This document shows positions 2,581 through 46,140 of a DNA stretch of 64,000 nt, one piece after another; the stretch's first letter is position 1, and each line of letters starts with the position of its first letter. The notes under the pieces are model-generated. The model was not told the origin of the DNA and did no database searches. It saw nothing but the letters and a program-made list of their open reading frames with translations. Origin of the DNA: an uncultured bacterium (lineage in GTDB: Bacteria > Babelota > Babeliae > Babelales > JACPOV01); the NCBI GenBank assembly GCA_963744715.1, contig CAVUUR010000010.1, forward strand, positions 1 through 64,000, written 5' to 3'. Both the position numbers and the translations under genes were made by a program.

Positions 2581-2591
2581 AAAGGATTATT

Positions 2592-3955: not shown

Positions 3956-4860
3956 GACTCGGGTTTACGTTGATTGAACTCTTACTAGCCGTTTCCTTTT
4001 CATTGATTTTGATAACAACATTGTTTAATAGTTTTTTTCAAATGACCAGAGTTGTTCATAGCGCCGATCAATTAATGGATAATGATACGCGTATCAGTAC
4101 TATCAACAATCAATTTGAACGAGATATTTCTGGCATTTTTGTTCCGGTTCAAGCAATAACTGAAGCAATACAACCGCAAACAACCCCAGGGTCTGCTCAA
4201 GCACAACCGGAAAAAAAATCACAACCTCTGCAAAAAGTTTTTTATAGCACGAATAAAGAAAATGTAGTATCAGCACTTACCTTTATTACTAATAATCCGA
4301 TACGCATTTATGAAAAAAATAAACAAGGCACCAGTAAGCCGTGCATTGTTCGCGTAGTGTATACCTTGGTTAAAGAAAAAGAAGCTGAAAACTCCTATGC
4401 TTTAATGCGCCAAGAAGGAACAGATTTAAATTATGATGCGTATAAAGCAAAGGCAAGCAAGCCTATTATTGCTTATCAACTTGCTGAGCGGATTAAAAGT
4501 ATTACCGTTGAATACAAAGTTCCCGAGCAAAAAAATAGTAAAGCATCCGAAGATAATAATCCTATAAAATATGATACACATAAAGAATGGCCTGGCAAAC
4601 AACAAGCAGATAAACCGCCATTGATACCGCAATTTATAACGTTCAAAATGATTTTATGGGATGCGCACCGACAAAACGAATATGAATACACGCTCGATTA
4701 TAGCATCGCAGCCTTTGATAGTAATAAGGCACTTTCATTTAAAGCAACTTCAACGGCAGGAACAGCGAAAGATTTGGTTCCCTCGACGACCCAGAACAAA
4801 ACGGGAAAATCAGGTTCGCCTAGAATAAATCCATTTGCAACAACGCAAGGATCGCGATGA
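3952..4860 (+). CDS. gspJ: T2SS minor pseudopilin GspJ-like
   Basis: GFTLIELLLA prepilin motif; FERDI helix end; ATGA overlaps with neighbours. Confidence 0.75.
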   Translation: MRLGFTLIELLLAVSFSLILITTLFNSFFQMTRVVHSADQLMDNDTRISTINNQFERDISGIFVPVQAITEAIQPQTTPGSAQAQPEKKSQPLQKVFYSTNKENVVSALTFITNNPIRIYEKNKQGTSKPCIVRVVYTLVKEKEAENSYALMRQEGTDLNYDAYKAKASKPIIAYQLAERIKSITVEYKVPEQKNSKASEDNNPIKYDTHKEWPGKQQADKPPLIPQFITFKMILWDAHRQNEYEYTLDYSIAAFDSNKALSFKATSTAGTAKDLVPSTTQNKTGKSGSPRINPFATTQGSR

Positions 4861-30625: not shown

Positions 30626-30695
30626 CGGTTGTTTTGAAGAAATTAGATAAAATCAGTATATTGCAGGTAATTTTTTACTATGGGTTCTAAAGAAT

Positions 30696-31577
30696 TTATT
30701 CCTTTTCCAATTGTTTTAAATAATGGGCTACATAGGAATCCTTACGTGCTAATTGAGAAGGCGTTTTCCTATTTCTGTTCGTTATATTCATTTTAATTTT
30801 TTGATCATGAAAATATTCTAATAATTTGCTCCGAGAGTATTTTGCTGCGATATGCATAATAGTATTTTGATCAGCATCTACATGTGTTGACTCAAAAGTT
30901 TCGTTTGAAATATCGAAATGTTTATAAACTTGTATCATTGTTGTAAGAAGATAGAAGTTAGAAGAAAGTTTTTTGGAAAGATCTTGCAAAATCTGTTGGT
31001 GTGAATAATTTTTATACTTCTTAATTAACGTATCGAAGGTTTCTTTTGATTCTCGTTCCCGTTCTGCTTCTTCCTGATCCTTTCGTGCTCGTTCGTTGAG
31101 TTCTTCTTCCCTGGTCTTAGCGATATAAAAAGCAGTAATGGGTTGTTTATCATATTGAGTTGTAGTTTTTTGTTTTTTTGAGACCTGTCCTGTAACGTTT
31201 GCAGATGGTTTAAAATCTTGACCAGATAACTGAGGCGCTTTAGTTTGAAATCTTTGAGTTTCTTTAGATGATGCTATTATAGGTGACGACCTAATTGTAT
31301 TGGTTATTATGGTAGAATTGGCAGAAACAGTTTGTTGTTCGGCAATCCGGGATGGTAGAAATGGATCTTGAAGTAATCTTTTTTCGTAGTTAATAAGCCA
31401 TGCGGCGTTTTTTTGTGTGAATGCCGAAAAAGTATTTATTAAAGATGACATTTCAAGATCTGAAATAGATCCTGTTATCGGGAATTGTCTTTGGGTTTCG
31501 GAGAGTTGTTCCATGCTCAATAGTTGTAGAGGAAATATGAGGCTGATTAAACTATATTTTTTTATAGAAAATTTCAT
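30696..31577 (-). CDS. Secreted ankyrin-repeat family protein (array member 1, module B)
   Basis: MKFSIKKYSLISLIFPLQLLS-MEQ; NTIMHIAAKY...KTPSQLA. Confidence 0.85.
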   Translation of the reverse strand: MKFSIKKYSLISLIFPLQLLSMEQLSETQRQFPITGSISDLEMSSLINTFSAFTQKNAAWLINYEKRLLQDPFLPSRIAEQQTVSANSTIITNTIRSSPIIASSKETQRFQTKAPQLSGQDFKPSANVTGQVSKKQKTTTQYDKQPITAFYIAKTREEELNERARKDQEEAERERESKETFDTLIKKYKNYSHQQILQDLSKKLSSNFYLLTTMIQVYKHFDISNETFESTHVDADQNTIMHIAAKYSRSKLLEYFHDQKIKMNITNRNRKTPSQLARKDSYVAHYLKQLEKE

Positions 31578-31638
31578 GATATTTCTCTTGGGTAAAATTA
31601 CTATTTATATTACGAAATTGTATATTAAGTAGTATGAA

Positions 31639-31669
31639 ATTATACAATAAAAAATTGTATATTAAAATT
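31639..31669 (-). promoter_or_regulatory. Array promoter/operator motif copy 1
   Basis: TACAA-N7-TTGTA at 31643-31659; TATAAT -10 on minus strand. Confidence 0.7.
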
Positions 31670-31692
31670 ACTTTTTTTGGTTCGATATATAC

Positions 31693-31739
31693 TTTCATTG
31701 CTATTCCTTACGTATGCCATTTAAAATAGCGAGTTTTTT
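31693..31739. repeat. Direct repeat copy 2 of ftsL leader
   Basis: TTTCATTGCTATTCCTTA...TTAAAATAGCGAGTTTTTT abutting stop codon of next array gene. Confidence 0.85.
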
Positions 31740-32964
31740 ATGTAGGGTTTATGTGTTCCCAATCTTTTAAGTAGAGAGCCGTTAAAGAACCGTCGGGAGC
31801 TAATTGACAAGGTGTTTGCCCGTCAGCGTTTTTTATACTTGTATTAATTTTTTTTGTTGTATGCAAATAGTCCAATAAATTTTTTTGTGAATGTATCGCT
31901 GCTATATGAATAATAGTATTACCATTTTTGTCAAAAGGTATTGATTCGAGAGTTTCACTTGAGATATTAAATCTGTCACAAGCTCCTTGTACTGCGTCGT
32001 TAAAAGATCCGTTGCCCATATGAGTTCCAGAAAACCTATTGATAATTCCTTGTAAAATTTCTTTGTGTGAAAGGAAGTTTTTTTCATAGGAGTTAAGAAT
32101 TTTTTCTATGCATTCCGTATTTTTTCTTGATCGATCGTTTTTTTCACGTTTTTTTCTGGGGGTTCTTGTCTGTTTCTTTTCTGTTAGGTTATCATGCGTT
32201 ATTCCAATTGCTCCTGTTACTTGTGCTAAATATTTTTTAGTCTTTCCTGCCGTTTTGATCGTACATTGTTCAGCATAATTCAATGCATTTTTTCCGTTAT
32301 CATCAGTTTCCAAAGGGTCGAAGTGATGAATATCAATTAAATATTGAACTGCTCTTAAAGCTCCTACCGAAGCTACTTGATGTAAAAGCGTTGAGTTGTT
32401 GTCAAAGCGAGCGTTAAGGTAAATGGCTGAGTCAGTTTTTCGCAGGAGTTCTATAACATACGGTGAACTTTTCCCGTACTTTGCATAGCCCGGTTGTAAA
32501 AGGGGTTTAACCCTTTTGATAAAATTGCGTGTGCCCTCAGATTGTGTTACGGTTCTATCGGTTACTATGTTAGAGTTAACAGAAATAGTTTGTGGTTCGG
32601 CGATCGGGAATGCTTGAAGTTGATAGGGCCGTTCTTGAGCGAAAATTTGTTGATGGTCTGTCATCATGATAGATTGTTCCGACTCCGTGTGATCTATCCG
32701 CTGCGGTGCAATAGAATTTAAAGTACTATTGTTATCTGAGTAATTTTTACTATTGAAATCTGTTTCATTGGGCATATCCGTATGGGGCTTCATGTTTATA
32801 ACGGTTGATTGGCTTTCGGTGTAGTTAGTTTTCATCTGTCCCGTGAAGTTATAAAATTTTTGTATCAGAGATGACATTTGCTCATCCGAATTTCGTTGCA
32901 TGCTCAATAGTTGTAGAGGAAATATGAGGCCGATTAAACTATATTTTTTTATAGAAAATTTCAT
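31738..32964 (-). CDS. Secreted ankyrin-repeat family protein (member 2, modules A+B)
   Basis: Start corrected to MKFSIKKY at 32964; STLLHQVA and NTIIHIAA repeats; basic RTPRKKREK. Confidence 0.88.
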   Translation of the reverse strand: MKFSIKKYSLIGLIFPLQLLSMQRNSDEQMSSLIQKFYNFTGQMKTNYTESQSTVINMKPHTDMPNETDFNSKNYSDNNSTLNSIAPQRIDHTESEQSIMMTDHQQIFAQERPYQLQAFPIAEPQTISVNSNIVTDRTVTQSEGTRNFIKRVKPLLQPGYAKYGKSSPYVIELLRKTDSAIYLNARFDNNSTLLHQVASVGALRAVQYLIDIHHFDPLETDDNGKNALNYAEQCTIKTAGKTKKYLAQVTGAIGITHDNLTEKKQTRTPRKKREKNDRSRKNTECIEKILNSYEKNFLSHKEILQGIINRFSGTHMGNGSFNDAVQGACDRFNISSETLESIPFDKNGNTIIHIAAIHSQKNLLDYLHTTKKINTSIKNADGQTPCQLAPDGSLTALYLKDWEHINPT

Positions 32965-33026
32965 GATATTTCTCTTGGGTAAAAATCTATTACTTATGTT
33001 ACGAGATTGCATACAACCAGCAAGGA

Positions 33027-33057
33027 ATTATACAATAAAAAATTGTAAATTAAAATT
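33027..33057 (-). promoter_or_regulatory. Array promoter/operator motif copy 2
   Basis: TACAA-N7-TTGTA at 33031-33047; TATAAT -10. Confidence 0.7.
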
Positions 33058-33152
33058 ATTTTTTTAATGCGATATGCATTTTGATCGCTGAATTCTCCGA
33101 TTAGCGGGTCTCTTCGATTATTTTATGGAGATGTCCTGTCAACTAATTTTTC

Positions 33153-34139
33153 TTATATATCATCTGGTAAGATTTCCCCCCGCTCAAGAGGAGGGAGGTA
33201 TTCTTGAGCAGACTGAAGGATAGTAGTACAAATATTTCTTGATTTATCTGTATTTGTATCGATTTGTTCAAAACATTTTGATATCCAACCTTGATTAATT
33301 GCACCACAGTAATAATCATCGTTTTTTTTATTAGACAATCCGGATTTCACAAAAGGAAGTATGTCATCATTAACATAATTTACCAAATGCTCAGGGAAAA
33401 ATTGAGTGCTGCACTCACTACCGATACAAGAAAGTAATTTTATTTTAATAATGTTAACAAAACGTTCATAATCTCCTAAATCATTCTTGTGTGTATTTAC
33501 GTAGGTATCATACCACACCTTGGCTGCACGAGGCTGTTGCTTAATAATGGCACGTTTGAGCCCTTTAATGCTTTCAGGTTGTAAAATGCTATATTCTAAG
33601 GCCTCAGGGTCACCAGATTGTGGCGGAAATTGTAGTGCAGCGCGTGATAGAGCTACCATTCTTTGAGATTTTGCTTTTATAAGTCGTTCTGTGCCTAGAT
33701 CACCACTGATTTTTCTTAACGAATTATAGGCCTTTATCATGTGAAGATAAGCTTCTAGATCAGAAAATTTAAATTCAGAATCAAGGAACTGTTTAGTGAA
33801 TTCGCTTGCATACCCTTCAATTATCAATATTTTACTAAGATTATTTTTTTTTTCAGAGATGTCTTTAATAATTTGTTCTTGCTTGACCCAAGACTCATGT
33901 GAGTTTAAACCTTTCTTATTCTTAAGAGCTTCAAGTTGCTGAATTTGTATTGGAAGAATAATTTTAAGTTCCTCAGGAGAAGGCTTTGGTTCTGTTTTGA
34001 CTGTAAAGGCGAAATATGCATCGCGTTGTACATATTTCCCAATATTAGGGCTGTTTAATTGCGGATTAATTTGAGACATGTTCATGGCATTAATTGCATA
34101 GGTAATAAAAGCTATAAAAAATAAGATGTTACGTAACAA
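33153..34139 (-). CDS. Secreted hypothetical protein within the array (non-ankyrin)
   Basis: AGGAG RBS, TTG start, signal peptide AINA-MNM, 328 aa. Confidence 0.75.
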   Translation of the reverse strand: MLRNILFFIAFITYAINAMNMSQINPQLNSPNIGKYVQRDAYFAFTVKTEPKPSPEELKIILPIQIQQLEALKNKKGLNSHESWVKQEQIIKDISEKKNNLSKILIIEGYASEFTKQFLDSEFKFSDLEAYLHMIKAYNSLRKISGDLGTERLIKAKSQRMVALSRAALQFPPQSGDPEALEYSILQPESIKGLKRAIIKQQPRAAKVWYDTYVNTHKNDLGDYERFVNIIKIKLLSCIGSECSTQFFPEHLVNYVNDDILPFVKSGLSNKKNDDYYCGAINQGWISKCFEQIDTNTDKSRNICTTILQSAQEYLPPLERGEILPDDI

Positions 34140-34209
34140 AATTATATCTCCTGTATTGCTAATATTGCTATAAAAGGTGATGGAATAGTTAATATTAATT
34201 ATTACATTG

Positions 34210-34557
34210 TTACAAGGAAATTTTTAACATATACAGTGGTTTTTTGTGAATTTTTTGGATGCTTGCATTAATTTTTTCAAATATATATTTATTATTTCTT
34301 TTGTACAATTGGTAGGATATAAGACCCACTATCAATCCTCCCACGATGCCTCCCAATAAAGCATTCAAAAATTGCATGCCCATTAACGTTGGGGATTTAA
34401 AAAAAAATAACATTGTTCTAAATTTTATTTTTTCTATATAGGTGTGGCAAGCGCTGAAGATTTTTTGTTTCAATCTTGGCATATTCTCTGAACATAAACA
34501 ATGTAGATTTAGTGTGAGAAGTACGCAGCCATAAAAACGTTGTAAGTTAGTATTCAT
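34210..34557 (-). CDS. Hypothetical membrane protein
   Basis: 115 aa, signal-like N-terminus and GxxxG TM helix (LLGGIVGGLIVGLI). Confidence 0.6.
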   Translation of the reverse strand: MNTNLQRFYGCVLLTLNLHCLCSENMPRLKQKIFSACHTYIEKIKFRTMLFFFKSPTLMGMQFLNALLGGIVGGLIVGLISYQLYKRNNKYIFEKINASIQKIHKKPLYMLKISL

Positions 34558-34608
34558 GATTACCTTTAAAAACTCAAAGTTATTTGCTTATTGGATTTAA
34601 GCATTAAG

Positions 34609-34635
34609 GTAGATTTTTTTCATAAAAAAATCTAC
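34609..34635. terminator. Perfect 12-bp inverted repeat (terminator or operator)
   Basis: GTAGATTTTTTT-CAT-AAAAAAATCTAC downstream of 34711..35379. Confidence 0.4.
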
Positions 34636-34710
34636 TTCTATATCATGAAATTATAACTTAAAAAATTCAAAATATACATTATCAATATATGCATAATCGA
34701 CAAGGCTTTA

Positions 34711-35379
34711 TTAGTTCCTTTTTCGTTTTTTTGTTGGATAAATAGATTGTAAAGAATTAGAATTTTTAATTTGATTTAATCCGGCTAAATATTGAAAAGC
34801 CTGAGGTTTTTCATTTTGAATTTTTGCTGCGTAATCAAGAGGTGTTTTCCCGAGGGAATCTCTAGCACTATAGTCAAATCGATATTTCTCAATACATTCT
34901 CTAATCATTGTGTACATTCCCACTCTAGCGAGTTCATGTAAAAGCGTTCTTTTGTATTTAAAACAAGGTTGGGAGTAAATTTTTTCGGGCGTGTTATTGA
35001 GGAGTTGTCTCATGTCATCTACATATGTTAATTTTTGTCTATATGCCTCAATTAAATTTGCTATCTGTTTTTTAAAGGTTGTTTGGTTTTTGATGTTGTA
35101 TAGTTTATTATTATTATTATCATCAACATAATCTTCATCATTATCTTCATCTCCACAATTTTTATCATTGTCTTCATCAGAGACTGGTTGATGATTGTCA
35201 GAATAATATTGTTCGGTATTATCGTTAGCAGATTTTATAGTAGTCAACATTTGGGCTAAAAAAATTTCCGCCGCTTCAGAATCTTCCGGAGAGTCATTAA
35301 AATGATATTGATCCATGCTTAAGAGTTGTAAAGGAAATATGAGAGTCGCTAAAATATATTTTTTTAAGTAAGTTTGCAT
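34711..35379 (-). CDS. Secreted ankyrin-repeat family protein (member 3, module A, acidic tract, C-terminal NLS-like)
   Basis: MQTYLKKYILATLIFPLQLLS-MDQ; RTLLHELA...GKTPLDYA; ends PTKKRKRN. Confidence 0.88.
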   Translation of the reverse strand: MQTYLKKYILATLIFPLQLLSMDQYHFNDSPEDSEAAEIFLAQMLTTIKSANDNTEQYYSDNHQPVSDEDNDKNCGDEDNDEDYVDDNNNNKLYNIKNQTTFKKQIANLIEAYRQKLTYVDDMRQLLNNTPEKIYSQPCFKYKRTLLHELARVGMYTMIRECIEKYRFDYSARDSLGKTPLDYAAKIQNEKPQAFQYLAGLNQIKNSNSLQSIYPTKKRKRN

Positions 35380-35423
35380 AATAATTTCTTTCCGTTTTTT
35401 TACATCAGCATTATTGCTACTGT

Positions 35424-36590
35424 TTATTTAATTGTTTTTCTTTTTTTATTTTGCGGTGTGCTATCCATAGTATTATCGATTAATTCACTCAATAACGTTT
35501 GTGTTTTGGGATGTCCGTGAGCTAGTTGATAGGGAGTTTTACTTTTTTTATTTTGGGTATTTATAGCAACATTTTTGAGGTTAAGAAATTGTAATAGATG
35601 ACATTGCCCATACTTCGCTGCTATATGAGTAAGATTATTTCCATCGTTATCTAAAGCAGTTGACTGAATAACCCCTTTCGAAAGAGGCCATTTTTCATCA
35701 AACATTTGTATCGCCATGTACAAGCCCCCATTTAAAATATACTTCTTACCAAAAGGAAATACGTTAATAAGTTTTTTTAGACGTTCTTCGGTTGGAAGAT
35801 TTGGCGTAGCGCATGCGGTTAAGATGTTTGTCATACTCTTTTTTAGATGGGGATTAATTCCTGGATGTTTCGGGGGGCGTCCCATTTCCATTGGCAATTG
35901 GGTAGTTCGCACAATTGAGATAATATTTTCTTCTCCATCAGATGTGATTCGTTTTTTGCTTTTTGCAAATCTGTTTAAATATTTGAAAGCCTGAGGTTTT
36001 TCATTTTGAATTTGTGCTGCGTAATAAAGGGGAGTCTTGCCATGGGAATCTTGAGCGAGAGGATCAAATCCATAGTTCTCCACACATGCTTTAATTATCG
36101 TGAACATCCCCTCGTGAGCTGCGAGATGTAAAAGTGTTGCACCATGTTCAAAACAGGGTTGAGAGTAAATTTTCGGAGGAGTATCCTTTAGGAGTTTTTT
36201 TATATCCACTGCACACGATTGGTTTTGAGCATATCTTTGAATTGCCCTTTCTATCTGATCTTTAAAATAGTTGCTGTCACTACCGTCTTCATCATGCACC
36301 TTATCATCGCTCGATTCATCCTCTGCATAATAATAATCATGATTGACTTTATTGGTCTCGCCCTCGCTCAATGTAGTTTGATTTGATGAAATTTCTTTTT
36401 TGCCTGAATGAGCGCTTGGATCTTCCAGCCTTTTAGTTAAAAAAGATATAATACCCATTTCTTCTTCAGTAAAATTTAAATCCGAAGTGCCAGATATGGC
36501 GTTAGACTGTGGAGGTTGTTGTTGCATACTCAATAGCTGTAGAGGAAATAGGAAACTGATTAAACTATACTTTTTTAGATAGGTTTTCAT
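35424..36590 (-). CDS. Secreted ankyrin-repeat family protein (member 4, modules A+B, C-terminal NLS-like)
   Basis: Start corrected to MKTYLKKY at 36590; GATLLHLAA, GNNLTHIAA; ends PQNKKRKTIK. Confidence 0.88.
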   Translation of the reverse strand: MKTYLKKYSLISFLFPLQLLSMQQQPPQSNAISGTSDLNFTEEEMGIISFLTKRLEDPSAHSGKKEISSNQTTLSEGETNKVNHDYYYAEDESSDDKVHDEDGSDSNYFKDQIERAIQRYAQNQSCAVDIKKLLKDTPPKIYSQPCFEHGATLLHLAAHEGMFTIIKACVENYGFDPLAQDSHGKTPLYYAAQIQNEKPQAFKYLNRFAKSKKRITSDGEENIISIVRTTQLPMEMGRPPKHPGINPHLKKSMTNILTACATPNLPTEERLKKLINVFPFGKKYILNGGLYMAIQMFDEKWPLSKGVIQSTALDNDGNNLTHIAAKYGQCHLLQFLNLKNVAINTQNKKSKTPYQLAHGHPKTQTLLSELIDNTMDSTPQNKKRKTIK

Positions 36591-36671
36591 AGCAATGTTC
36601 TTTGATAAAAAAGTTATGCAGGTAAATATTTTTGCTGTGGATACTAAATTGCTGTACATCACATGAGCTAC

Positions 36672-37457
36672 CTATGTTCTCTTTCTGTTGGGTGTAAAAT
36701 CTTCATCCGAATCCGAATCCGAATCACTTTCATCACCATCTGAGGATTTTTTATTCTTACGTTTTTTTTTGGGTTTTTGGGTATTGGTTTGTGCAGTGAG
36801 AGATGTCAAATAGTCGATAACGCCTTTTCCGGTTATTCCAGATCGATTTGTTCGACCCGGAAATACATCATTGGCGTAATCAAGGGGGGTTTTTCTTTGA
36901 CAATCTACGGCTGATGGTTCCAGCCCTCCTTCAACTAAGAATACGCAAAGACTTTTAGCGCCCACTTGAGCTGCTAGATGTAAAAGCGTTGCGTCATTTT
37001 CAAAACGCCATTTACAAATAATTTTTTTATCAATATCTTTTAATAACCCTATAATGCGTGCTGATGCTTTTCCCCACCGCGTATACCCCCGGAGTTTGAA
37101 TATAGCAGCAACTTGGGCCCTAATTTTCTCCCCAGAATGGGCAATGCCGCCAGATTCAATGTAAGGATCATCATCAAAATCGGTATCCCCACCGGAGCCT
37201 ATATGCTCTGTACTATCGGATTTTTGTTCTGATGAAATATCAGAAAAGTATTTTGAAATTGGCTGATGCAATCCACTTAATTGTCGTACAGCAATATTAA
37301 AATTTTCGTCTTCGTCTAGCGGATTGTTGATTAGTTTTTCCCGCATTGCATAAGGTACTTTGGCTGTTTTTCTTTTATTATCTGATTGTTCCATGCACAA
37401 GATCTGCAGGGGAAATATCACACAAATTACAACGTATTTTCTTATATAGATTTTCAT
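36672..37457 (-). CDS. Secreted ankyrin-repeat family protein (member 5, module A, NLS-like plus acidic tail)
   Basis: MKIYIRKY...FPLQILC-MEQ; DATLLHLAA; PKKKRKNKK; SSDGDESDSDSDSDED; (ATCCGA)3 at 36705-36722. Confidence 0.88.
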   Translation of the reverse strand: MKIYIRKYVVICVIFPLQILCMEQSDNKRKTAKVPYAMREKLINNPLDEDENFNIAVRQLSGLHQPISKYFSDISSEQKSDSTEHIGSGGDTDFDDDPYIESGGIAHSGEKIRAQVAAIFKLRGYTRWGKASARIIGLLKDIDKKIICKWRFENDATLLHLAAQVGAKSLCVFLVEGGLEPSAVDCQRKTPLDYANDVFPGRTNRSGITGKGVIDYLTSLTAQTNTQKPKKKRKNKKSSDGDESDSDSDSDEDFTPNRKRT

Positions 37458-37523
37458 AGTAATTTTATTTGTTTATGCGTTAAACGTTTTTTTAATATAT
37501 GGTTGTTCATAATGCGCGAAAAA

Positions 37524-37554
37524 AGAGTACAATAAAAATTTGTAAATTAAAAGA
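37524..37554 (-). promoter_or_regulatory. Array promoter/operator motif copy 3
   Basis: TACAA-N7-TTGTA at 37528-37544; TACTCT -10. Confidence 0.7.
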
Positions 37555-37697
37555 TTATTTTATTTCGATTGCTTATTTTTTATAAAGGAATTATATGAAA
37601 TATAGAAATGTCGGCATACATTCTCATAATGATTGATTTATGCGAAGTGCAACTATATGGGGGTAGTGGTTATTACGGTAAAGTGAAGAATGAATTA

Positions 37698-38888
37698 TTA
37701 TCCTCTTTTTCTTTTTCTCGATTGCGTGTTTTCCTCTCGAGCATAGTTCATCCGAGGGTTTTGCTCTAAGTACTTAATAATTTCCGTATGCCTATTTTCC
37801 GTGGCATACTCGAGTGGTGTTTTTCCATGATCGTCGCACATAAAGATGTCATGCCCGTGCCCCTCAATTAAGAATTTACATGCATATAATGATCCGGCTG
37901 CAGCCGCTAAATGTAAAATAGGTTTTGGCCGTGTTGGGATCCTTTCATTCTGGCATTGTGTCATAGTTTGTTCGGCATTTAGGTTTTTCAAACGTTCTAC
38001 CCTAGTGGTTTGTAGGCATCTGTGGATCGATTTACGCGCACTACCATCATCCGGGATGTAATCAATCGGAATTTGCCCATTATTATCTTTCGTGAAACAG
38101 CTAAAATTATATCTTCTAAGTAATTTTGTTACCAATGTGCCCGCACCTTTTGCAGCCGCTAGATGTAAAAGTGTTGCACCATTTTCAAAACGAGCATTAA
38201 GATAAACTTTTTCGGGGGTTTTTTCTATTATCGCCAGAATATTGGATTGTGTGCCCCGACGCGTATCGAGTAATTCGAGTTGCTCACAGATTTTTGATTT
38301 AAAAGTCTCTAGATTTTCTTCTGTGGGAGTATCCGGGTCATCCAAATATGGATATTCATTCGCGTATACGGCGTTCACGGCGTTTCTTAGATAGTTTGTG
38401 GTCATTGTATGTTTATTGTTACGAGCATAATCGATGGGAGTTTCCCCGTTATCGTCTTTACAGAGGGGATTAAATCTATATTGTTCCACCAACGTAATAG
38501 CTGGAGCGAGCAAACCTGCTTGGGCTACTAGGTGCAAAGGTGTTGCACCATTTTCAAAACGAACTTCCGGATAAATTTCTTCGGGAATAGTTGCTAAGAA
38601 TGATAATAGCTGTGAGATATTATGTTTGAGTGGGCCCTTGCTCAGGAAATTTTCTTGAATATAGCTTACGGCCCCATTAATAGCCATAGTTTTTTGGGGA
38701 TCGACTTCTCGTATACTGAACCGTGTGGTTATGTTATCAGCGTTATTTTCATCGAATGATAAATTTGGGACAGATGCTTCGTTTAAAATCTCTCTAATAT
38801 CTATTATTTGTTCTATTTGTTCCATACTCAAGAGCCGCAAAGGAAATATCAAATAGGTAAAAATATATTTTTTTATATAAATTTTCAT
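37698..38888 (-). CDS. Secreted ankyrin-repeat family protein (member 6, three A-type modules, C-terminal NLS-like)
   Basis: MKIYIKKY...FPLRLLS-MEQ; three LHL(V/A)A...GKTP-type repeats; ends QSRKRKRG. Confidence 0.9.
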   Translation of the reverse strand: MKIYIKKYIFTYLIFPLRLLSMEQIEQIIDIREILNEASVPNLSFDENNADNITTRFSIREVDPQKTMAINGAVSYIQENFLSKGPLKHNISQLLSFLATIPEEIYPEVRFENGATPLHLVAQAGLLAPAITLVEQYRFNPLCKDDNGETPIDYARNNKHTMTTNYLRNAVNAVYANEYPYLDDPDTPTEENLETFKSKICEQLELLDTRRGTQSNILAIIEKTPEKVYLNARFENGATLLHLAAAKGAGTLVTKLLRRYNFSCFTKDNNGQIPIDYIPDDGSARKSIHRCLQTTRVERLKNLNAEQTMTQCQNERIPTRPKPILHLAAAAGSLYACKFLIEGHGHDIFMCDDHGKTPLEYATENRHTEIIKYLEQNPRMNYAREENTQSRKRKRG

Positions 38889-38964
38889 AGTAATTTATTT
38901 TTTGTAAAAAATTAAACATATACTATTATCATGAGGTTTATATATAAACGAAACGAGTGGAAAA

Positions 38965-38995
38965 AGGGTACAATAAAAATTTGTAAATTAAAAGA
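38965..38995 (-). promoter_or_regulatory. Array promoter/operator motif copy 4
   Basis: TACAA-N7-TTGTA at 38969-38985; TACCCT -10. Confidence 0.7.
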
Positions 38996-39001
38996 TTATT
39001 T

Positions 39002-40402
39002 TTATTCCAGCATCTTTTTTTTCTTATCTTGCTGCTGAAGTGGTTTTATTCGTTTGTTTTTATCTGTTTTACCATTCTTTTTTTCTATGGCGATGCATCG
39101 TTTATTTACCGTCTTGACTTCCTGGTACTGATTGATTTCATTTGCTTTACTAGCGGATAATTTTTGTAGTGAGTCAAGTATGGTATTGCTATTTTCGCCT
39201 GGAAATGATGACGTGTTTGGCGTTTCTAATTCTTCTAGCGGTTGATTTCCTTTTACGTGACCAAATTCTAAGTATTTAATAATTTCCGTATGCCTATTTT
39301 CCCTGGCATACTCGAGTGGTGTTTTTCCATGATCGTCGAGCATAAAAGGACTAAATCCGCGTTCTTCGATTAAAAATTTACATACATCTAATGATCCAGT
39401 TGCAGCCGCTAAATGTAAAATTAGTTTTGGAGATGTAAGAGGTGTATTAATGGATGGAGCGGCAGTTTGTGGAATACTTAGTTGTTGCCAGCGTTCTAAT
39501 CGCTTATAAAAACTCTTTACGTTGCGGTGTAACCACGTGCGGATCGATTGATTTGGATAATCGTTTGTGACATAATCAATTGGAGATTTTCCATTATTAT
39601 CCAGCACGAGAGGATTAAAATTATATGTTTGAACCAATTCTTTTACTGCTTTAAACGCACCTATTCGAGCTGTTAGGTGTAAAACTGTTGCACCATCTTC
39701 ATCTTCAAAACGGGCATTGAAATAAATTTTTTCAGGGGTTCTCTTTATCATTTTGAGAATACTATTCGAAATATGACCAGTATAGCCTGATGTGAAATAT
39801 TTACGGATTTTTACTTTAAAACTCTTCAACTCTTTTTCCGTAGGAAAATCTTTTTCCTGTAGATATTTTTCGTACAGTGTTCTTTTTAGATCTTTTAAAT
39901 AGCTACTAGTTTGTTGATGGTTATTGTTCTGGGCGTAGTAAAGTGGCGTATTTCCCTTATCATCTTTGCAGAAAGGGTCAAGTTGATAGTGTGTAACCAA
40001 TGACACAACTGCTCGCAGTGCTCCAGCTGCTGCTACTTTATGTAAAAGTGTCTCTCTATTTTCAAAGCGAGCTGCGGAATAAACCTCCTTGGAAGTATCT
40101 TGCAGGAGTGATAATACGTTGTCTGAAGTATTTTTGTGTCGAGCAACATCGTGGGAAAAATATTTCGTAATTTTTTTCTTAAAAAATTCAATAGATATAG
40201 TGGGTTGAGTATCTACTTTGTTTGTATTGAGTTCATGTGCGTTTATGTTATCAGTATGTAATATGTTATTTTCATCTATGAGCGGTAAGATTTGGGTGTA
40301 TAGTTTATTGAAACTGTCTGAATTATTTGATTGCATGCTCAAAAGCTGTAAAGGAAATATCAGATAGGTAAAAATATATTTTTTTATACAAGTTTTCATC
40401 AT
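39002..40402 (-). CDS. Secreted ankyrin-repeat family protein (member 7, three A-type modules)
   Basis: MKTCIKKY...FPLQLLS-MQS; ETLLHKVA, ATVLHLTA, ILHLAA; basic tail KNKRIK...DKKKK. Confidence 0.9.
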   Translation of the reverse strand: MMKTCIKKYIFTYLIFPLQLLSMQSNNSDSFNKLYTQILPLIDENNILHTDNINAHELNTNKVDTQPTISIEFFKKKITKYFSHDVARHKNTSDNVLSLLQDTSKEVYSAARFENRETLLHKVAAAGALRAVVSLVTHYQLDPFCKDDKGNTPLYYAQNNNHQQTSSYLKDLKRTLYEKYLQEKDFPTEKELKSFKVKIRKYFTSGYTGHISNSILKMIKRTPEKIYFNARFEDEDGATVLHLTARIGAFKAVKELVQTYNFNPLVLDNNGKSPIDYVTNDYPNQSIRTWLHRNVKSFYKRLERWQQLSIPQTAAPSINTPLTSPKLILHLAAATGSLDVCKFLIEERGFSPFMLDDHGKTPLEYARENRHTEIIKYLEFGHVKGNQPLEELETPNTSSFPGENSNTILDSLQKLSASKANEINQYQEVKTVNKRCIAIEKKNGKTDKNKRIKPLQQQDKKKKMLE

Positions 40403-40464
40403 TACTCATTGTACCTTTCATAAAAAATTTAAATATAGCTTCGAGGATTCATACAATTTGAGAA

Positions 40465-40495
40465 AGGGTACAATAAAAAATTATAAATTAAAAGA
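40465..40495 (-). promoter_or_regulatory. Array promoter/operator motif copy 5
   Basis: TACAA-N7-TTATA at 40469-40485; TACCCT -10. Confidence 0.65.
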
Positions 40496-40499
40496 GATA

Positions 40500-41097
40500 A
40501 TACTTTGATCCCCTGACTGCGTAGGCTGGAGTGGTATTTTTTCTTGAAGGCTTTTTCCTATACTTGTTTGCTATACTCGTACCAACTTTTTTTTTCATTT
40601 TTATAGTGCTCGTTTCCATCATCCGTTGCCAGTTCTTGTAGTAAAAGTAAATATAGTATCACTATTTTCACCAGGAACGGATGGCATGTTTAGTATTTCT
40701 GATACTTCTAGAGACTGATCTAATTATGCTTTGTCTTGTCAGTTGTTAAGGACTGTAAGTATAGTTTAGTTTTTCGATACGTACTGTTATTAGCGTAATC
40801 GAGTGGGGTTTTTCCATGATTATCTGTAACTAGAGGATCAAAGTTATTTTGCATGACTAAACATTTAATCGTTTCCGAAGCTCCTACGAAGCTAATTTAT
40901 GAAAAATTGTTGCACCATTTTCAAAACGAGCTTGAGAATAAATTTCTTTAGGAGTATCTCGTAGGATGGGAGTCATGCATTCCGATGCGTGATTAAGATA
41001 ACCTGGTTTGAGAGAGTAGTCATTAATTATTGATATAAAACTATCCACCGTTGTTATCGGTCCTCGTCGCCGTTTTTTATTTGTAGTGGCTGCGGGT
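40500..41097 (-). pseudogene. Frameshifted second ankyrin module, probably the 3' half of 41098..41790
   Basis: Shifted frame reads NEPAATTNKKRRRGP...TPKEIYSQARFENGATIFHKLAS/VGASETIKCLVMQNNFDPLVTDNHGKTPLDYA; 40791-40977 is a near-copy of 41208-41395 with a 1-nt deletion; 3' boundary approximate. Confidence 0.75.
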
Positions 41098-41790
41098 TCA
41101 TTTTGGGGCAGATGACATGTTTAGTGCTTGTAAAGACTTATCTAGTTGTACTTTATTTTTGCTAGCCGTTAAATATTGTAAACATATTTTAGTTGTTCCT
41201 CTCTGACTAGCATAATCGAGTGGAGTTTTTCCATGATCATCTGTAACTGAAGGATCAAAATTATTTTGCATGACTAAATATTTAATTGTTTCCAAAGCTC
41301 CTACCGAAGCTAATTTATGAAAAATTGTTGCACCATTTTCAAAACGAGCTTGGGAATAAATTTCTTTAGGAGTATCTCGTAGGATGGGGATCATGGATCT
41401 TGACCCTTGGTTAATATAACGTGCCTCGAGAAAATAGTTATTAATTACCGATGTAAACCTATCAACAGGCGTTATTGATTTACGTAGGCGCTTTTTACTT
41501 GCAGTTGTTGCCTCTTTAGTAGTGTCATTGGTTTGTTTTTTTAATTCATCAGAACTAGGTCGAAGTTGGTATTCACTAGTAAGATATCGATCGATGCCTT
41601 CCGCGTTGGGTTGGTTTACAAGAAGTAATTTGGTTTCATCGGTAGAAATATTTGCTGATTTCTGTGCAGATAGTTGGCTATATTTTTGATTATTCTTAAC
41701 GTCAAGATCTAAACTGTGCTGATGCATACCCAATAATTGCAAGGGTAATATCAAGTTAATTAAACTATAGTTTTTTATATAGATTTTCAT
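41098..41790 (-). CDS. Secreted ankyrin-repeat family protein (member 8, module A; probably extends to ~40500)
   Basis: MKIYIKNY...LPLQLLG-MHQ; SKKRLRK; GATIFHKLA...GKTPLDYA. Confidence 0.85.
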   Translation of the reverse strand: MKIYIKNYSLINLILPLQLLGMHQHSLDLDVKNNQKYSQLSAQKSANISTDETKLLLVNQPNAEGIDRYLTSEYQLRPSSDELKKQTNDTTKEATTASKKRLRKSITPVDRFTSVINNYFLEARYINQGSRSMIPILRDTPKEIYSQARFENGATIFHKLASVGALETIKYLVMQNNFDPSVTDDHGKTPLDYASQRGTTKICLQYLTASKNKVQLDKSLQALNMSSAPK

Positions 41791-41859
41791 AGTGATTTAT
41801 TTTTTTATAAAAAAATTAAACATATAATAATATGAGGTTATATATAAATGGGTTGAAAA

Positions 41860-41890
41860 AGGGTACAATAAAAAATTATAAATTAAAAGA
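41860..41890 (-). promoter_or_regulatory. Array promoter/operator motif copy 6
   Basis: TACAA-N7-TTATA at 41864-41880; TACCCT -10; lies in divergent gap with pgi. Confidence 0.65.
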
Positions 41891-41937
41891 TTATATTATT
41901 TTTTATGTACATTTTTGGGGTATTTGTATGAAAATCA

Positions 41938-43251
41938 ATGGAATTTAATTATAATGGTACAATCCTCATTAATAAAAAACACCTTGCGCCGTTGGCAACT
42001 CGCTTAATGCCTGAGATTAACGTTATACGAGAAGCTGTTGGAACTGGATATACTTCCGAGTATAGTTCGATTAATTTACCTACTGATGAAAAAATAAGTA
42101 AACAGGTTATCGATCTCGTAGCGAAAAAAAAAGAAAAAAACATTTCAACGTTAATCGTTATAGGAATCGGTGGTTCAAATCTTGGTACGATGGCTATTCA
42201 AGAGGCATTGCAAAATTCATTGTTTAGCACTCAATCTCACACAATAAAAATTTATTATGCCGATACGGTTGATGTGGATTATATTAGTTCTTTAATACGC
42301 TATGTGGAATGCGAATTGCAACAAGGAAGAAACGTTTTATTGAACGTTGTAACTAAATCCGGTACCACCATAGAAACTATTGCCAATTTTGAATGTTTAC
42401 TTTCTGTACTGATGCACTATCATCCGCATGATTATAATGATTACGTTGTCATTACCACTGATCGTGATTCGGTATTATGGCACTATGCAGAACAACAACG
42501 ATGTGCAGTCCTTGAAGTTCCTAAAAAAGTAGGAGGTCGTTATTCAGTATTATCAGCCGTTGGTTTATTTCCTTTGGCCATGATAGGTATTGATATTATT
42601 GAATTATTACATGGTGCACACGCTAGTACGCTTTTGTGTGTACAAGATGATATTGAGCAAAATCCTGCAGCATTAAGCGCTCTTATTAAATATAGTTATT
42701 ATAAGGAAGGCATTAATATCAATGATCTTTTCTTTTTTGATCGGGCCTTGGAAGCAATGGGCAAATGGTATAGGCAATTAATGGGAGAAAGTATAGGCAA
42801 AGAATATGACCGAGCTGGTAACAAAGTTGAAGTAGGTATTACGCCGACGGTTTCAATAGGAAGTACCGACTTACATTCCGTTGGTCAATTATATTTGGGT
42901 GGGCCAAGGGATAAATATATAACGTTTGTTTCTGTGCTTGAACATAATAACGTGCTTAATGTTCCTTTGATGCCGATATTTGAAAAATTGTTTGCAACTA
43001 TTCAGAAAAAATCATTATCATCAATAATGAATGCAATTTTAGAAGGTGTTAAAAAAGTTTATATTACACATGAGCGCCCGTTTTCTTCCATTATATTACC
43101 TTCAAAATCAGCATTTTATATTGGGCAATTTTTACAAATGAGTATGATAGAGATTATGTATTTAGGATATTTGCTTGATATTAATCCTTTTGATCAACCG
43201 CAGGTAGAGTTATATAAAGAAGAAACTCGAAAGATATTAGCACATGAATGA
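41938..43251 (+). CDS. pgi: Glucose-6-phosphate isomerase
   Basis: IGIGGSNLG, TKSGTTIET, VGGRYSVLSAVG, QLMGESIGK, DLHSVGQ, NPFDQPQVE.YK. Confidence 0.95.
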   Translation: MEFNYNGTILINKKHLAPLATRLMPEINVIREAVGTGYTSEYSSINLPTDEKISKQVIDLVAKKKEKNISTLIVIGIGGSNLGTMAIQEALQNSLFSTQSHTIKIYYADTVDVDYISSLIRYVECELQQGRNVLLNVVTKSGTTIETIANFECLLSVLMHYHPHDYNDYVVITTDRDSVLWHYAEQQRCAVLEVPKKVGGRYSVLSAVGLFPLAMIGIDIIELLHGAHASTLLCVQDDIEQNPAALSALIKYSYYKEGININDLFFFDRALEAMGKWYRQLMGESIGKEYDRAGNKVEVGITPTVSIGSTDLHSVGQLYLGGPRDKYITFVSVLEHNNVLNVPLMPIFEKLFATIQKKSLSSIMNAILEGVKKVYITHERPFSSIILPSKSAFYIGQFLQMSMIEIMYLGYLLDINPFDQPQVELYKEETRKILAHE

Positions 43252-44647
43252 TTGTTCTTTTATTATTTTAGGTGGCACGGGTGATCTTGCTAAGCGAAAA
43301 TTGATACCTGCAATGTATCGCTTAATGCACGATAAAAAAATTGAAAAATTTATTTTTGTTGGGGCTGCACTTGATGATATTTCCGGTGATGAGTTTATAG
43401 AGCGTGGCTACTCTTTTATTCGTAATCCGGATCAAGTATTGTGGGATCGTTTAAAAGCAGCTTCATATTACTATAAACTTGATTTTAACCAACAACGTGA
43501 TTTTGTTGTACTTAATGACGCACTTACGGTACTTGAAAAAAAACATGGGTTATCAGGAAACCGAATATTCTATCTAGCAACACCATCATATTATTTTTGT
43601 GATATCACGCAACATCTTGGTAGTTCCGGTTTGGTTAAAAAAGCTGGTACTGATGGTATGCATAATGGTATTTGGCAACGCATAGTTTATGAAAAACCAT
43701 TCGGTCTTGATTTAACTTCGGCATTAGCAGCTAATGCATGTATTACCAGCTGGTTTAATGAAAACCAAATTTATCGCATCGACCATTATTTAACCAAAGA
43801 ATTGGTAAGTAATATTGTGTTAGTGCGATTCACTAATATTATTTTAGAACCCTTGTGGAACAAACAATATATCGATTACGTAGAAATTATCATGACCGAG
43901 ACGATAGGCCTTGAAGGACGCGGGCGTTATTATGACAGCTATGGCATACTTAAAGATGTTGTACAAAATCATGTTATGCAATTAATTGCGCTGATTGCCA
44001 TGGAATTGCCCGAGACGTTAACGGCTCATGCAATTAGAGATGAAAAAGCAAAAGTATTAAAAAAAATTAGTGTAGTTGACGGACTTCTTGGTCAGTATGA
44101 TGGATATAAACAAGAACAAAATGTTGCTACGGATTCAACAACACCCACGTTTGCGTGTTTACGTCTTTTTGTTGATACGCCACGGTGGCAAGGAGTTCCT
44201 TTTTATGTAAAAGCGGGCAAACGATTAAGTAAAAAAGATACATCAATTCATATTAAATTTAAAAACGTTGATTGTACTATTAAAGAAAGTTGTGTATATG
44301 AATCAGACTATCTTTCCATTCAAATTGAACCGGATGCGAGTTTTTCTTTGCAATTAAATACTAAACAACCTGGTGCAATGTACGAAGTTGTTCCGGTCTC
44401 ACTAACTTTTAGTCATAATTATGTTTTTCGTAGTTTAACACCCGAGGCGTATGAAGTATTATTAGAGCGGATTATGCTTGGTGATCAATATGTTTCAGTT
44501 CGGTTTGATGAAATTGAATATGCTTGGATAGTAATAGATACTATTCAAAAGCTCAATCTTCCCCTCTATTTTTATAAGCAACTTAGTGTTGGACCTGAAG
44601 AAATTAAAGCTTTTGATAAAAAATATAAGGTACGGTGGCGGGCATGA
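43244..44647 (+). CDS. zwf: Glucose-6-phosphate 1-dehydrogenase
   Basis: GGTGDLAKRKL, EKPFG, RIDHYLTK, DVVQNH, RWQGVPF. Confidence 0.95.
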   Translation: MNDCSFIILGGTGDLAKRKLIPAMYRLMHDKKIEKFIFVGAALDDISGDEFIERGYSFIRNPDQVLWDRLKAASYYYKLDFNQQRDFVVLNDALTVLEKKHGLSGNRIFYLATPSYYFCDITQHLGSSGLVKKAGTDGMHNGIWQRIVYEKPFGLDLTSALAANACITSWFNENQIYRIDHYLTKELVSNIVLVRFTNIILEPLWNKQYIDYVEIIMTETIGLEGRGRYYDSYGILKDVVQNHVMQLIALIAMELPETLTAHAIRDEKAKVLKKISVVDGLLGQYDGYKQEQNVATDSTTPTFACLRLFVDTPRWQGVPFYVKAGKRLSKKDTSIHIKFKNVDCTIKESCVYESDYLSIQIEPDASFSLQLNTKQPGAMYEVVPVSLTFSHNYVFRSLTPEAYEVLLERIMLGDQYVSVRFDEIEYAWIVIDTIQKLNLPLYFYKQLSVGPEEIKAFDKKYKVRWRA

Positions 44648-45543
44648 AAATAGGCATTATTGGTCTGGGCAAAATGGGAAGCGCAATAGCATATCGCTTA
44701 TTGCAAGCAGGACATGAAGTAATTGGTTTTAATCAAGATCGGCAAGCAGCAGATATTGTTAAAAAAATGGGTGCTGAAATTGTTACATCGGTGCAAGAAG
44801 TTGCACAAAAAGCGCGGATTATTTGGCTTATGATTCCTGCGGGAGATCCGGTGGATGAAGTTCTTGAGCAATTACAGGGGAACTTACAACGCGATGACAT
44901 TATTATTGATGGAGGAAACAGCAAATTTACCGATTCGATACGGCGTGCAAATTATCTTAAAGGGTTCAACATTAATTTTCTTGATTGCGGAACCTCTGGT
45001 GGCTTACAGGGCAAAGAGATCGGTTTTTGCTTAATGGTTGGGGGCCAAAAAGGCGCTTATCTCACTATCGAACCATTATTGAAGGCAATTGCAGCACCGC
45101 GAGGATATGGGCATGTAGGGGTTTCAGGAGCAGGACACTACGTTAAAATGATACACAATGGTATTGAATACGCATTGTTGCAGAGTTATGCCGAAGGATT
45201 TCATTTATTAAAAGAAGGTCGTTATAAAGAATTAGATCTTGCTCACATTGCTGATATTTGGAACCATGGTTCGGTAATACGTTCATGGATTTTAGAGCTT
45301 TCGTATACGATATTTAAGCATAATACAACCTTCAAAAATATTTCCGGAGAAATTGCTGAAAGTGGTACTGGAGCATGGACGGTGCAGGAAGCAAAAGAAC
45401 AAAATATTCCAGTACCGTTGATTGAACATGCATTAGCTATCCGAGCATGGTCACGTGCTACGGGTGGTAATTATGCAACGAAAGTTGTTGCAATGTTACG
45501 CAATGCTTTCGGCGGACATGCGGTTACCAAGAAAAATACATAA
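44644..45543 (+). CDS. gnd: 6-phosphogluconate dehydrogenase, decarboxylating (short GndA/YqeC type)
   Basis: GLGKMG, IIIDGGNS, DCGTSGG, GAGHYVKMIHNGIEY, RNAFGGH; ATG at 44644 overlaps zwf stop. Confidence 0.93.
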   Translation: MKIGIIGLGKMGSAIAYRLLQAGHEVIGFNQDRQAADIVKKMGAEIVTSVQEVAQKARIIWLMIPAGDPVDEVLEQLQGNLQRDDIIIDGGNSKFTDSIRRANYLKGFNINFLDCGTSGGLQGKEIGFCLMVGGQKGAYLTIEPLLKAIAAPRGYGHVGVSGAGHYVKMIHNGIEYALLQSYAEGFHLLKEGRYKELDLAHIADIWNHGSVIRSWILELSYTIFKHNTTFKNISGEIAESGTGAWTVQEAKEQNIPVPLIEHALAIRAWSRATGGNYATKVVAMLRNAFGGHAVTKKNT

Positions 45544-45590
45544 ATAACTATCTAGCAACAATTACAAAAAAATTTATCCCAGATAAATGT

Positions 45591-45621
45591 TCTTTCAATA
45601 TACAATACTTTATTGTAAACT
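45591..45621 (+). promoter_or_regulatory. Array promoter/operator motif copy 7 (opposite orientation)
   Basis: TCTTTCAATA-TACAA-TACTTTA-TTGTA-AACT; palindrome 45601-45617; TAAACT -10. Confidence 0.7.
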
Positions 45622-45663
45622 TTTACGCGTTTAACGATAATTTTTTACAGAAAGAGCATTGTT

Positions 45664-46140
45664 ATGAAAGTATGTATAAAAAAATATAGTTTTATGTGTT
45701 TGCTATTTCCTCTGAGAGTACTGAGTATGGAGCAGCAGGATTTAGATTCGTATATGAAAAGGCTGATCACAGAATTTAATAACTTTAAGAATACCGATGT
45801 TTATAAGCAAAAGTTACCATCGGATCAAAGACAAGGTATGGGTTGTGGCAATGAAGGCTATTCAGCCGATAATAATAATGTACGCAGTACTGGTAAACGT
45901 GGGTCTGAATTTTTTATTGAACATACTGGGGATAAATCAGCTCAAAAAGGTATTTACGAACGATTGGATGAAGAGGGGAATACCATAATGCACATAGCAG
46001 CAATGCGTGGGCAAGAATCATTTTTAGGAAATCTTTGGCGAAACGGTGTTTCTATGGATATAAAAAATAGTAGTGGACAAACTCCTAATCAGTTATTGGA
46101 GATATTCAAGAAACAAAAAAATATCGTCGATTGCGAATAA
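45664..46140 (+). CDS. Secreted ankyrin family protein (member 9, outlier, module B)
   Basis: MKVCIKKYSFMCLLFPLRVLS-MEQ; GNTIMHIAA...GQTPNQL. Confidence 0.85.
   Translation: MKVCIKKYSFMCLLFPLRVLSMEQQDLDSYMKRLITEFNNFKNTDVYKQKLPSDQRQGMGCGNEGYSADNNNVRSTGKRGSEFFIEHTGDKSAQKGIYERLDEEGNTIMHIAAMRGQESFLGNLWRNGVSMDIKNSSGQTPNQLLEIFKKQKNIVDCE

Follow-up and report, generated by a model that had tools for sequence, protein, structure and literature searches.

Positions 30,696 to 46,140 of contig CAVUUR010000010.1 (GenBank assembly GCA_963744715.1), part of the 64,000-nt stretch of DNA analysed here (positions 1 to 64,000 of the forward strand; "the window"), encode nine paralogous ankyrin proteins with a shared secretion-type leader. 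Together with a tenth paralog on another contig they are predicted, from sequence, to be ten host-directed effectors, a family restricted to the lineage of this Babeliales parasite, and we think it reasonably probable that these ankyrin effectors are non-catalytic and are targeted to the nucleus of the host cell. Each gene is built as a cassette: a private upstream element and a Sec-type leader, then a disordered linker, one to three ankyrin modules and, mostly, a basic motif resembling a nuclear localization signal (NLS).

Nine paralogs with one leader, and a tenth with a divergent one

The initial annotation described nine genes with a common leader in this region, and all nine are present. 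The leader, MK.xIKKY...FPL[QR]LL[SCG]M, is found in eight minus-strand open reading frames (ORFs), here named A1 (30696) to A8 (41098), and in one plus-strand ORF, A9 (45664), and a looser form of the pattern, run over the 6512 stop-to-stop frames of the source genome (G000; 1.26 Mb, 86% complete, 1192 ORFs called crudely), returns these nine only. The members in the window are:

30696..31577, minus strand: A1; leader, low-complexity linker and a single ankyrin module, of type II; lacks a strong basic cluster
31738..32964, minus strand: A2; leader and modules I and II, with RTPRKKREK between the modules; extra upstream in-frame ATG at 33012
34711..35379, minus strand: A3; leader, acidic linker and module I; C-terminus PTKKRKRN; upstream element absent; separated from A4, which precedes it, by 44 nt
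35424..36590, minus strand: A4; leader, acidic linker and modules I and II; C-terminus STPQNKKRKTIK; no upstream element; follows A5
36672..37457, minus strand: A5; leader and module I, followed by KPKKKRKNKK, an acidic Ser/Asp tract and the end TPNRKRT
37698..38888, minus strand: A6; leader and three ankyrin modules; C-terminus SRKRKRG
39002..40399, minus strand: A7; leader and three ankyrin modules; shares 47% identity with A6; the tail, DKKKKMLE, is weak
41098..41790, minus strand: A8; leader, SKKRLRK and module I; stop at a homopolymer run, which may be an assembly error
45664..46140, plus strand: A9; leader and short type-II-like module; inverted outlier past pgi-zwf-gnd; no strong cluster

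A profile of the nine identified the tenth paralog, A10 (G000:C6:137697-138707, or L021:5698-6708; 336 aa), which is 28% identical to A4 over 299 residues, has both module types, a divergent leader and the C-terminus TRKRKRI, and carries the family upstream element. A10 is the best independent check on the family, since it was not picked by its tail motif. Pairwise body identity among members is mostly 22-47%.

Basic clusters exceed the background of the proteome

To score the clusters we used NLS patterns after Kosugi, ELM and PSORT, taking as strict the class-1 pattern (KR[KR]R or K[KR]RK) and as loose any four basic residues in five. The proposal that all nine window members carry an NLS holds for seven of nine under the loose rule and for four of nine under the strict rule, but A1 and A9 have no strong cluster. 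Seven of the eight clusters originally quoted lie inside intact ORFs; the eighth, NKKRRR, lies past the stop codon of the A8 gene, in a frameshifted stretch.

The strict motifs stand above the Lys-rich background, as had been supposed: four of nine members have one, against a mean of 0.1 in shuffled sequences (none of 100 shuffles reaches four) and 17 of 1183 other ORFs. With A10 included the pattern is found in 5/10 members, vs. 16/1136 other proteins in G000, 18/1004 in G001 and 7/345 in ankyrin-rich loci of other Babeliales; the comparison covered approximately 1.20 Mb of G001, a genome of the same family, and 0.41 Mb of ankyrin-rich loci in six further genomes. The other ORF classes of the source genome give 2/95, 6/251, 9/596 and 0/241; secreted proteins as a class show no NLS enrichment with strict patterns (2/95 and 6/251), and the motif excess is therefore a property of the family. 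The excess is also seen at the C-terminus, where four basic residues in five occur within the last 12 residues in 5/10 members vs. 21/1182 other proteins, and where four members (A3, A5, A6 and A10) end in R-K-R-x-stop vs. 1/1182 others. Among 53 other local paralog clusters (at least three genes; clusters were counted as families because their members are kin), one reaches 40% class-1, through one inherited site, and in no cluster are the majority of tails basic.

The clusters occupy different places in different members: before module I in A8, after it in A2, A3 and A5, and after modules II or III in A4, A6 and A10. At matching tail places the Arg codons differ (AGA, CGA, AGG, CGG) while the residue is kept, and the tails are therefore not products of poly-A slippage. 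A frameshift origin of the A3-A6 and A10 tails was considered and rejected: double stop codons or the next gene lie close behind them, and the A3 and A4 ends are the same in Logan-derived proteins. A classical monopartite K[KR]x[KR] core that is disordered and above background is present in five to eight of the ten members, A1 and A9 not among them. Directly before the cluster, [ST]P is found in 3/10 members vs. 12/1136 other proteins; SV40 T has a cyclin-dependent kinase (CDK) site at the matching position. The acidic Ser tract beside the A5 motif resembles casein kinase 2 (CK2) sites, which are described as boosting SV40 import (PMC3022542).

A private upstream element precedes the family genes

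A 28-bp element occurs at exactly eight sites in the genome, every one before a family gene. The seven in the window are:

31640..31667, minus strand: element before A1 (TTTYAA-17-TAnnnT, palindrome TACAA-N7-TTGTA)
33028..33055, minus strand: element before A2
37525..37552, minus strand: element before A5, probably also serving A4 and A3
38966..38993, minus strand: element before A6
40466..40493, minus strand: element before A7
41861..41888, minus strand: element before A8
45593..45620, plus strand: element before A9

A matrix made from these sites scores them at 29.5-38.2 bits, and the A10 site at 29.0 bits; the best of all remaining genomic sites scores 15.9 bits. All eight elements end 42-76 nt before a family start and consist of TTTYAA, 17 nt and TAnnnT, with TA(C/T)AA-N7-TTGTA across the spacer. 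Promoters of the genome follow TTGAC-N17-19-TAnnnT (62 of 693 upstream regions vs. 6.7 expected), and the element resembles a weak sigma-70 promoter with a palindrome lying across it. The shared operator proposed in the initial annotation is thus upheld as a common element before seven of nine window members, but not before A3 or A4, and its role as an operator is putative. Because A4 and A3 have no element and lie close behind A5, A5-A4-A3 are probably one transcript. A reading of the element as a terminator was rejected. A search of 60 relatives gave one match (G017, two mismatches, no ankyrin gene adjoining), which we take as chance.

Regulator candidates in the genome are one sigma-70 match and three HTH_3 (helix-turn-helix) matches, two antitoxin-like and one HTH-S24 repressor-like; no OmpR-type regulator was matched in the genome, and none of the candidates is assigned to the element. 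One of these few candidates is a frameshifted gene for an HTH and S24-like repressor at G000:C6 ~192.8-193.5 kb.

Leader, ankyrin modules and predicted structure

The 21-residue leader is the best-conserved part of the proteins (62% identity over codons 2-21 in 36 pairs vs. 45% in the best ankyrin core), and one third of the retained leader residues use a different codon. It has a basic n-region, a 10-residue hydrophobic core and a small residue before Met22. The resulting junction, [ASGC]-M-[EDQ] at the predicted cleavage site, is found in 84/398 signal-type proteins of G000 (control positions, 5) and in 76/378 of G001 (control positions, 4). A mature start of Met-Asp/Glu/Gln resembles eukaryotic NatB substrates, and may possibly represent host mimicry or an export tag.

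The presence of ankyrin modules in all nine window members is confirmed: Pfam ankyrin matches at E<=0.01 are obtained for 9/9, five of them clearly over curated cut-offs and four at or under them (30696, 36672 and 45664; 34711 only just), and the model fold of A4 agrees. Module type I is present in A2-A8 and A10 (doubled in A6 and A7), type II in A1, A2, A4, A9 and A10, and a third form in A6 and A7. An AlphaFold2 model of A4 (7-row alignment) has two helical domains, at ~103-212 and 247-375, with predicted local distance difference test (pLDDT) values mostly of 80-92, a predicted template modelling (pTM) score of 0.38, and linking and flanking segments, including the tail 376-388, at pLDDT <50. 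The A4 module 106-213 aligns to ankyrin domains (Z 12.8, root-mean-square deviation 2.6, 98 residues) with no single match standing out, and Foldseek with the A4 model returns designed ankyrin repeat proteins (DARPins) and viral and assorted ankyrins, with no specific relative.

Pfam and NCBIfam scans of the members matched no enzyme, F-box or DNA-binding family; F-box and PRANC gave no Pfam match at E<=0.01, and the C-termini are short disordered tails. The modules are best described as putative small (~100 aa) ankyrin binding units, one to three per protein, without catalytic or F-box part. Import by the RaDAR code, which needs L, I, F or C at repeat position 13 in two consecutive repeats (numbering as given in PMC9204287), was examined as an alternative route and rejected: position 13 is A, S, Q, M or R in well-formed repeats, except for L in A6 module 1, and the second repeats of modules are degenerate.

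Searches beyond the source genome gave no further member

A profile of leader and modules, the search that the initial annotation had proposed, gave ankyrin-level matches only among 60 relatives (best E 2e-15); neither this profile nor the larger searches yielded a member outside the source genome. The G031 match over profile positions 1-184 was dismissed as a generic secreted ankyrin. Searched against 1.84 billion representatives, the profile found, among the best 150 of 27361 matches, long multi-ankyrin proteins and the source genome's own members. Word-index searches found no outside member, one of them being weak (8000 candidates scored, several known members missed), and the ESM Atlas returned generic ankyrin clusters only.

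Tandem arrays of secreted ankyrins are themselves common; in G053, single 20-kb loci contain 27, 18 and 12 such genes in a run. One array of that genome (G053:C1 ~1,387-1,432 kb; L168-L170) holds ~60 small signal-peptide ankyrin genes in tandem with varied tails, a few of them NLS-like (L170:8426-8806, L170:8833-9228 and L169:9862-10653). Unrelated small secreted ankyrins of G053 end in TRKRKRAE, GTKRKR and KKRK...KKAK, and a further unrelated secreted ankyrin ends in PTKKKKRIL; among the signal-type ankyrins of the loci compared, 5/86 have a basic tail. CaaX-like ends (CIIT, CLFS, CTLL, CCIG, CLFK) occur in 5/147 signal-type proteins vs. 0/148 without a signal, in loci chosen for ankyrins; the excess is not seen in G000 or G001. 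These suggest that short tails of a kind that could serve as addresses recur across the order. The CaaX-like tails are:

L168:9635-10240, L168:7449-7988 and L169:4626-5384 (G053), L171:2766-4019 and L176:12787-14880: CaaX-like tails in ankyrin-rich loci of other Babeliales

Three further observations concern secreted proteins of these genomes. L160:13147-19097 (G001) encodes seven secreted proteins with, by eye, an F-box-like N-terminus (LMDLPNDIL) and ankyrins, four of which share WKKRK; L019:9536-10357 has two basic clusters; and L043:6788-7762, in another Babeliales genome, encodes a signal-type hydrolase-like protein with the C-terminus TTTRKRS.

Array layout and neighbouring sequence

The description of the locus as a tandem array is accurate for the eight minus-strand paralogs and the inverted ninth, but contiguity is broken by two unrelated ORFs. 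These, and a frameshifted stretch within the array, are:

33153-34139 and 34210-34557, minus strand: two ORFs (328 and 115 aa) unrelated to the family; neither matches Pfam or NCBIfam; interrupt the array between A2 and A3
40490..41097, minus strand: frameshifted stretch; second copy of A8 module I, including NKKRRR, and an A7-like tail

The stretch at 40.5-41.1 kb is 81% identical in DNA to the A8 ankyrin module, in shifting frames, with the A7-like tail beside the A7 upstream element; most likely, ~40,490-41,097 is the 3' half of A8, broken by indel errors or recent decay. Sequence after A2 (31680-31720) is similar to that around the start of the ftsL-like gene that follows A1 (30585-30630), both reading gctattntaa...taaggaatagcaatgaaa, which indicates that A1 and A2 arose next to ftsL-ftsI by a tandem duplication of recent date. 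Between A4 and A3, the 44 nt at 35380-35423 read KKRKE in the A3 frame, like a second copy of the A4 tail.

Source organism, assembly and export machinery

The RuvB of the window shares 61-76% identity with records whose titles name Babeliales, Dependentiae or TM6 and ~50% with other bacteria, although some close records bear other or vague titles, and the genome has three ATP/ADP-translocase-family genes. We assign the source to a Babeliales (Dependentiae) bacterium, the family being encoded by a Babeliae genome. A free-living source would have spoken against host targeting; these genes point to an intracellular one, and the Babelota are described as strictly intracellular in protists, cytoplasmic by fluorescence in situ hybridization (PMC12172432).

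Conserved genes are often interrupted in this assembly: 4/28 lie in more than one frame, valS (window 14426-16907, 14.4-16.9 kb) is broken into at least seven frame pieces, dnaE (G000:C12 ~190.6-194.0 kb) and rpoD (C2 ~139-140 kb) are also split across frames, and the sole sigma-70 match sits in a 158-aa frame. The Logan-derived copy of A4 is likewise split, at a C run. The assembly is thus rich in single-base indels, and pseudogene calls in the genome are therefore unreliable.

A type II secretion system (T2SS) had been assigned to 1.4-5.9 kb of the window as the possible outer-membrane route. The genes are present, but form only part of a system, with a frameshifted gspF:

1361..5921, plus strand: partial T2SS operon; gspF split over three frames, gspG scoring above its cut-off, two more N-methyl pseudopilins and two ORFs of no assigned family; candidate export route

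Elsewhere the genome has two GspD-like, one GspC-like and two GspE-like proteins and an intact GspF-like protein, on C3, C6, C11 and C2. GspE and GspG are over their NCBIfam cut-offs; the GspD-, GspC- and GspF-like proteins are below cut-off, yet T2SS models match them best. We conclude that the genome carries a putative T2SS gene set dispersed over four contigs, and we infer that the family uses it. VirB4 was not found in the 86%-complete genome; T2SS genes without VirB4 agree with Babeliae descriptions (PMC4378268, PMC4776705).

Proposed function and alternatives

According to the reading we favour, the members would be co-expressed from the shared upstream element, exported by Sec with cleavage before Met22, passed through the outer membrane by the T2SS (no other secretion system is described for Babeliae) and released into the host cytoplasm, where importin-alpha would bind the basic motif and bring about nuclear import, and where, once in the nucleus, the ankyrin modules would bind host nuclear proteins as decoys or adaptors. 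The motif-less A1 and A9 probably stay cytoplasmic. Host nuclear degradation at 12 h is described for Chromulinavorax (PMC6561590); it is consistent with a nuclear role, and not specific to it.

Several observations weigh against nuclear targeting. The Fisher values of 3e-7 and 8e-7 for the motif excess overstate it, the members being kin and the array having been picked for the motif, and one other paralog cluster of 53 equals the family on class-1. The loose rule is satisfied by 8/10 members, but also by 8/24 other ankyrin genes and ~15% of all proteins, and single members reach a loose cluster in 12-38% of shuffles; for the bipartite and class-2 patterns there is no clear excess (10 and 5 of 100 shuffles); and two of ten members, A1 and A9, have no cluster, that of A7 being weak. 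No outside homolog was found by which motif conservation could be judged, and the assembly has indel errors. Signal peptides were judged by hydropathy only (mean Kyte-Doolittle hydropathy of leader cores 1.75-2.78 over 10 residues), and the A10 leader is weaker than the others. A predicted NLS in Orientia Ank13 (cNLS score 7) proved dispensable (PMC8406279). The terminal RKRx of four tails also fits the COPI-binding RKxx/KxKxx rule (PMC8208577).

This last point is the core of an alternative that we regard as unlikely, namely that the basic tails are cytoplasmic addresses, RKRx binding COPI, or polybasic stretches attaching the proteins to nucleic acid or anionic membranes close to the bacterium as it replicates. 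The C-termini of A3, A5, A6 and A10 fit, with Lys at -3 in all four and at -5 in A3, A6 and A10 as in the rules of PMC8208577; R-K-R-x-stop is rare elsewhere (1/1182), and the CaaX-like ends described above (5/147 vs. 0/148) indicate that membrane addressing exists in the lineage. COPI binding does not account, however, for the internal clusters of A2, A5 and A8, for KRKTIK at the end of A4, or for the G053 tails RKRKRAE and TKRKR, which have no Lys at -3, and the motifs are longer than such binding requires. COPI cargo is normally made up of membrane proteins, whereas the mature proteins here have no clear transmembrane segment (maximum Kyte-Doolittle hydropathy over 19 residues 0.3-1.6).

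That the tails serve the bacterium, in export, stability or periplasmic or surface anchoring, and that the proteins never enter a nucleus, is distinctly unlikely in our view. Positively charged C-termini are export signals of type IV secretion system (T4SS) effectors, only Sec-type leaders are evident, the window gspF is frameshifted in the assembly, and no tested T2SS substrate is known in Babeliae; but no VirB4 was found, a second, intact GspF exists, and a basic tail is present in only 5/398 other signal-type proteins, so that it is not a general export tag. We give little credence to a functionless founder effect, by which one ancestral K/R-rich tail was duplicated in an AT-rich genome. 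The members are paralogous, AAA and AGA codons are frequent, the array was selected for the motif beforehand, and the 7-gene cluster of G001 has four genes sharing one inherited KKRK. Against this, the tails persist among paralogs 23-42% identical and behind different modules, and show synonymous Arg codon changes, double stop codons and clusters at three positions.

The nuclear reading can be extended to a more general proposal, which we put forward tentatively: that Babeliales give Sec/T2SS-exported ankyrins eukaryotic tails for host compartments, that the family is their co-regulated nuclear set, in which one private promoter/operator and leader cassette would deliver ten mini-ankyrin decoys through importin-alpha, and that CK2/CDK-type sites next to some of the NLSs would tie import to the host cell cycle. 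If true, the phylum would have its first family of nucleomodulins, and with it a path from T2SS to nucleus. Up to 126 ankyrin proteins and only a T2SS are encoded in Babeliae, and the family gives a first concrete prediction of a target compartment; the private upstream element offers a way into the control of effectors in genomes where regulators are very few. Should the motifs prove not to be NLSs, what is left is an ordinary lineage-specific ankyrin expansion.

Comparison with known systems

Within Babeliae, ankyrin proteins with a signal peptide are a known class, to which the family belongs. Proteins of this kind are described as 79 of 126 ankyrin proteins in Babela massiliensis and 78% of 98 in Chromulinavorax destructans (PMC4378268, PMC6561590), and these expansions share with the family the phylum, the combination of signal peptide and ankyrins, ankyrin-rich islands and a T2SS as only secretion system. 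The family differs in having a leader, module types and an upstream element peculiar to it, and the available text of those papers mentions no NLS or nuclear targeting. The initial annotation recognized no described family of this architecture; what is new is narrower, since signal peptide, ankyrins and T2SS are already described together, while NLS-like tails and the private element were not found in print. No literature joining Dependentiae, Babeliae or Babelota to NLSs was found among the papers listed, supplements and subscription journals lying outside this search, and the available text of PMC10117894 and PMC13311002 does not cover NLS-like tails or the private element.

Among effectors known from elsewhere, Orientia tsutsugamushi Ank1, Ank6 and Ank13 likewise form a paralogous ankyrin set with nuclear members (PMC7819608, PMC8406279), but are described as type I secretion system substrates with a C-terminal F-box/PRANC, Ank13 entering by RaDAR, in contrast to the Sec-type leader, classical-type motifs and lack of F-box match here. 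Anaplasma phagocytophilum AnkA is an ankyrin effector with importin-dependent nuclear entry (PMC9204287), but is a single large DNA-binding T4SS substrate whose NLS overlaps a repeat, whereas here the modules are small, the motifs terminal or in linkers, and VirB4 was not found. Legionella AnkH, an ankyrin effector of an amoeba parasite, is described as acting in the nucleus by binding LARP7; unlike the present family, AnkH, AnkG, AnkZ and LegA7 are Dot/Icm substrates, and AnkH is described as having no identifiable NLS. Membership in the Legionella AnkG/AnkZ/LegA7 family (NF043022) was considered and rejected: module I matches the C-terminal ankyrin part of that profile only (E 4e-12), at 45.6 bits vs. 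the whole-protein cut-off of 500 bits.

Two further parallels are analogies only. Theileria TashAT and SVSP are tandem families with signal peptide and NLS aimed at the host nucleus, in a eukaryotic parasite, and terminal reassortment of type III secretion system effectors reuses promoter and secretion-signal cassettes on different bodies. We conclude that the family, in its predicted mode of working, resembles AnkA, the nuclear Anks of Orientia and AnkH, and is a member of none of these.

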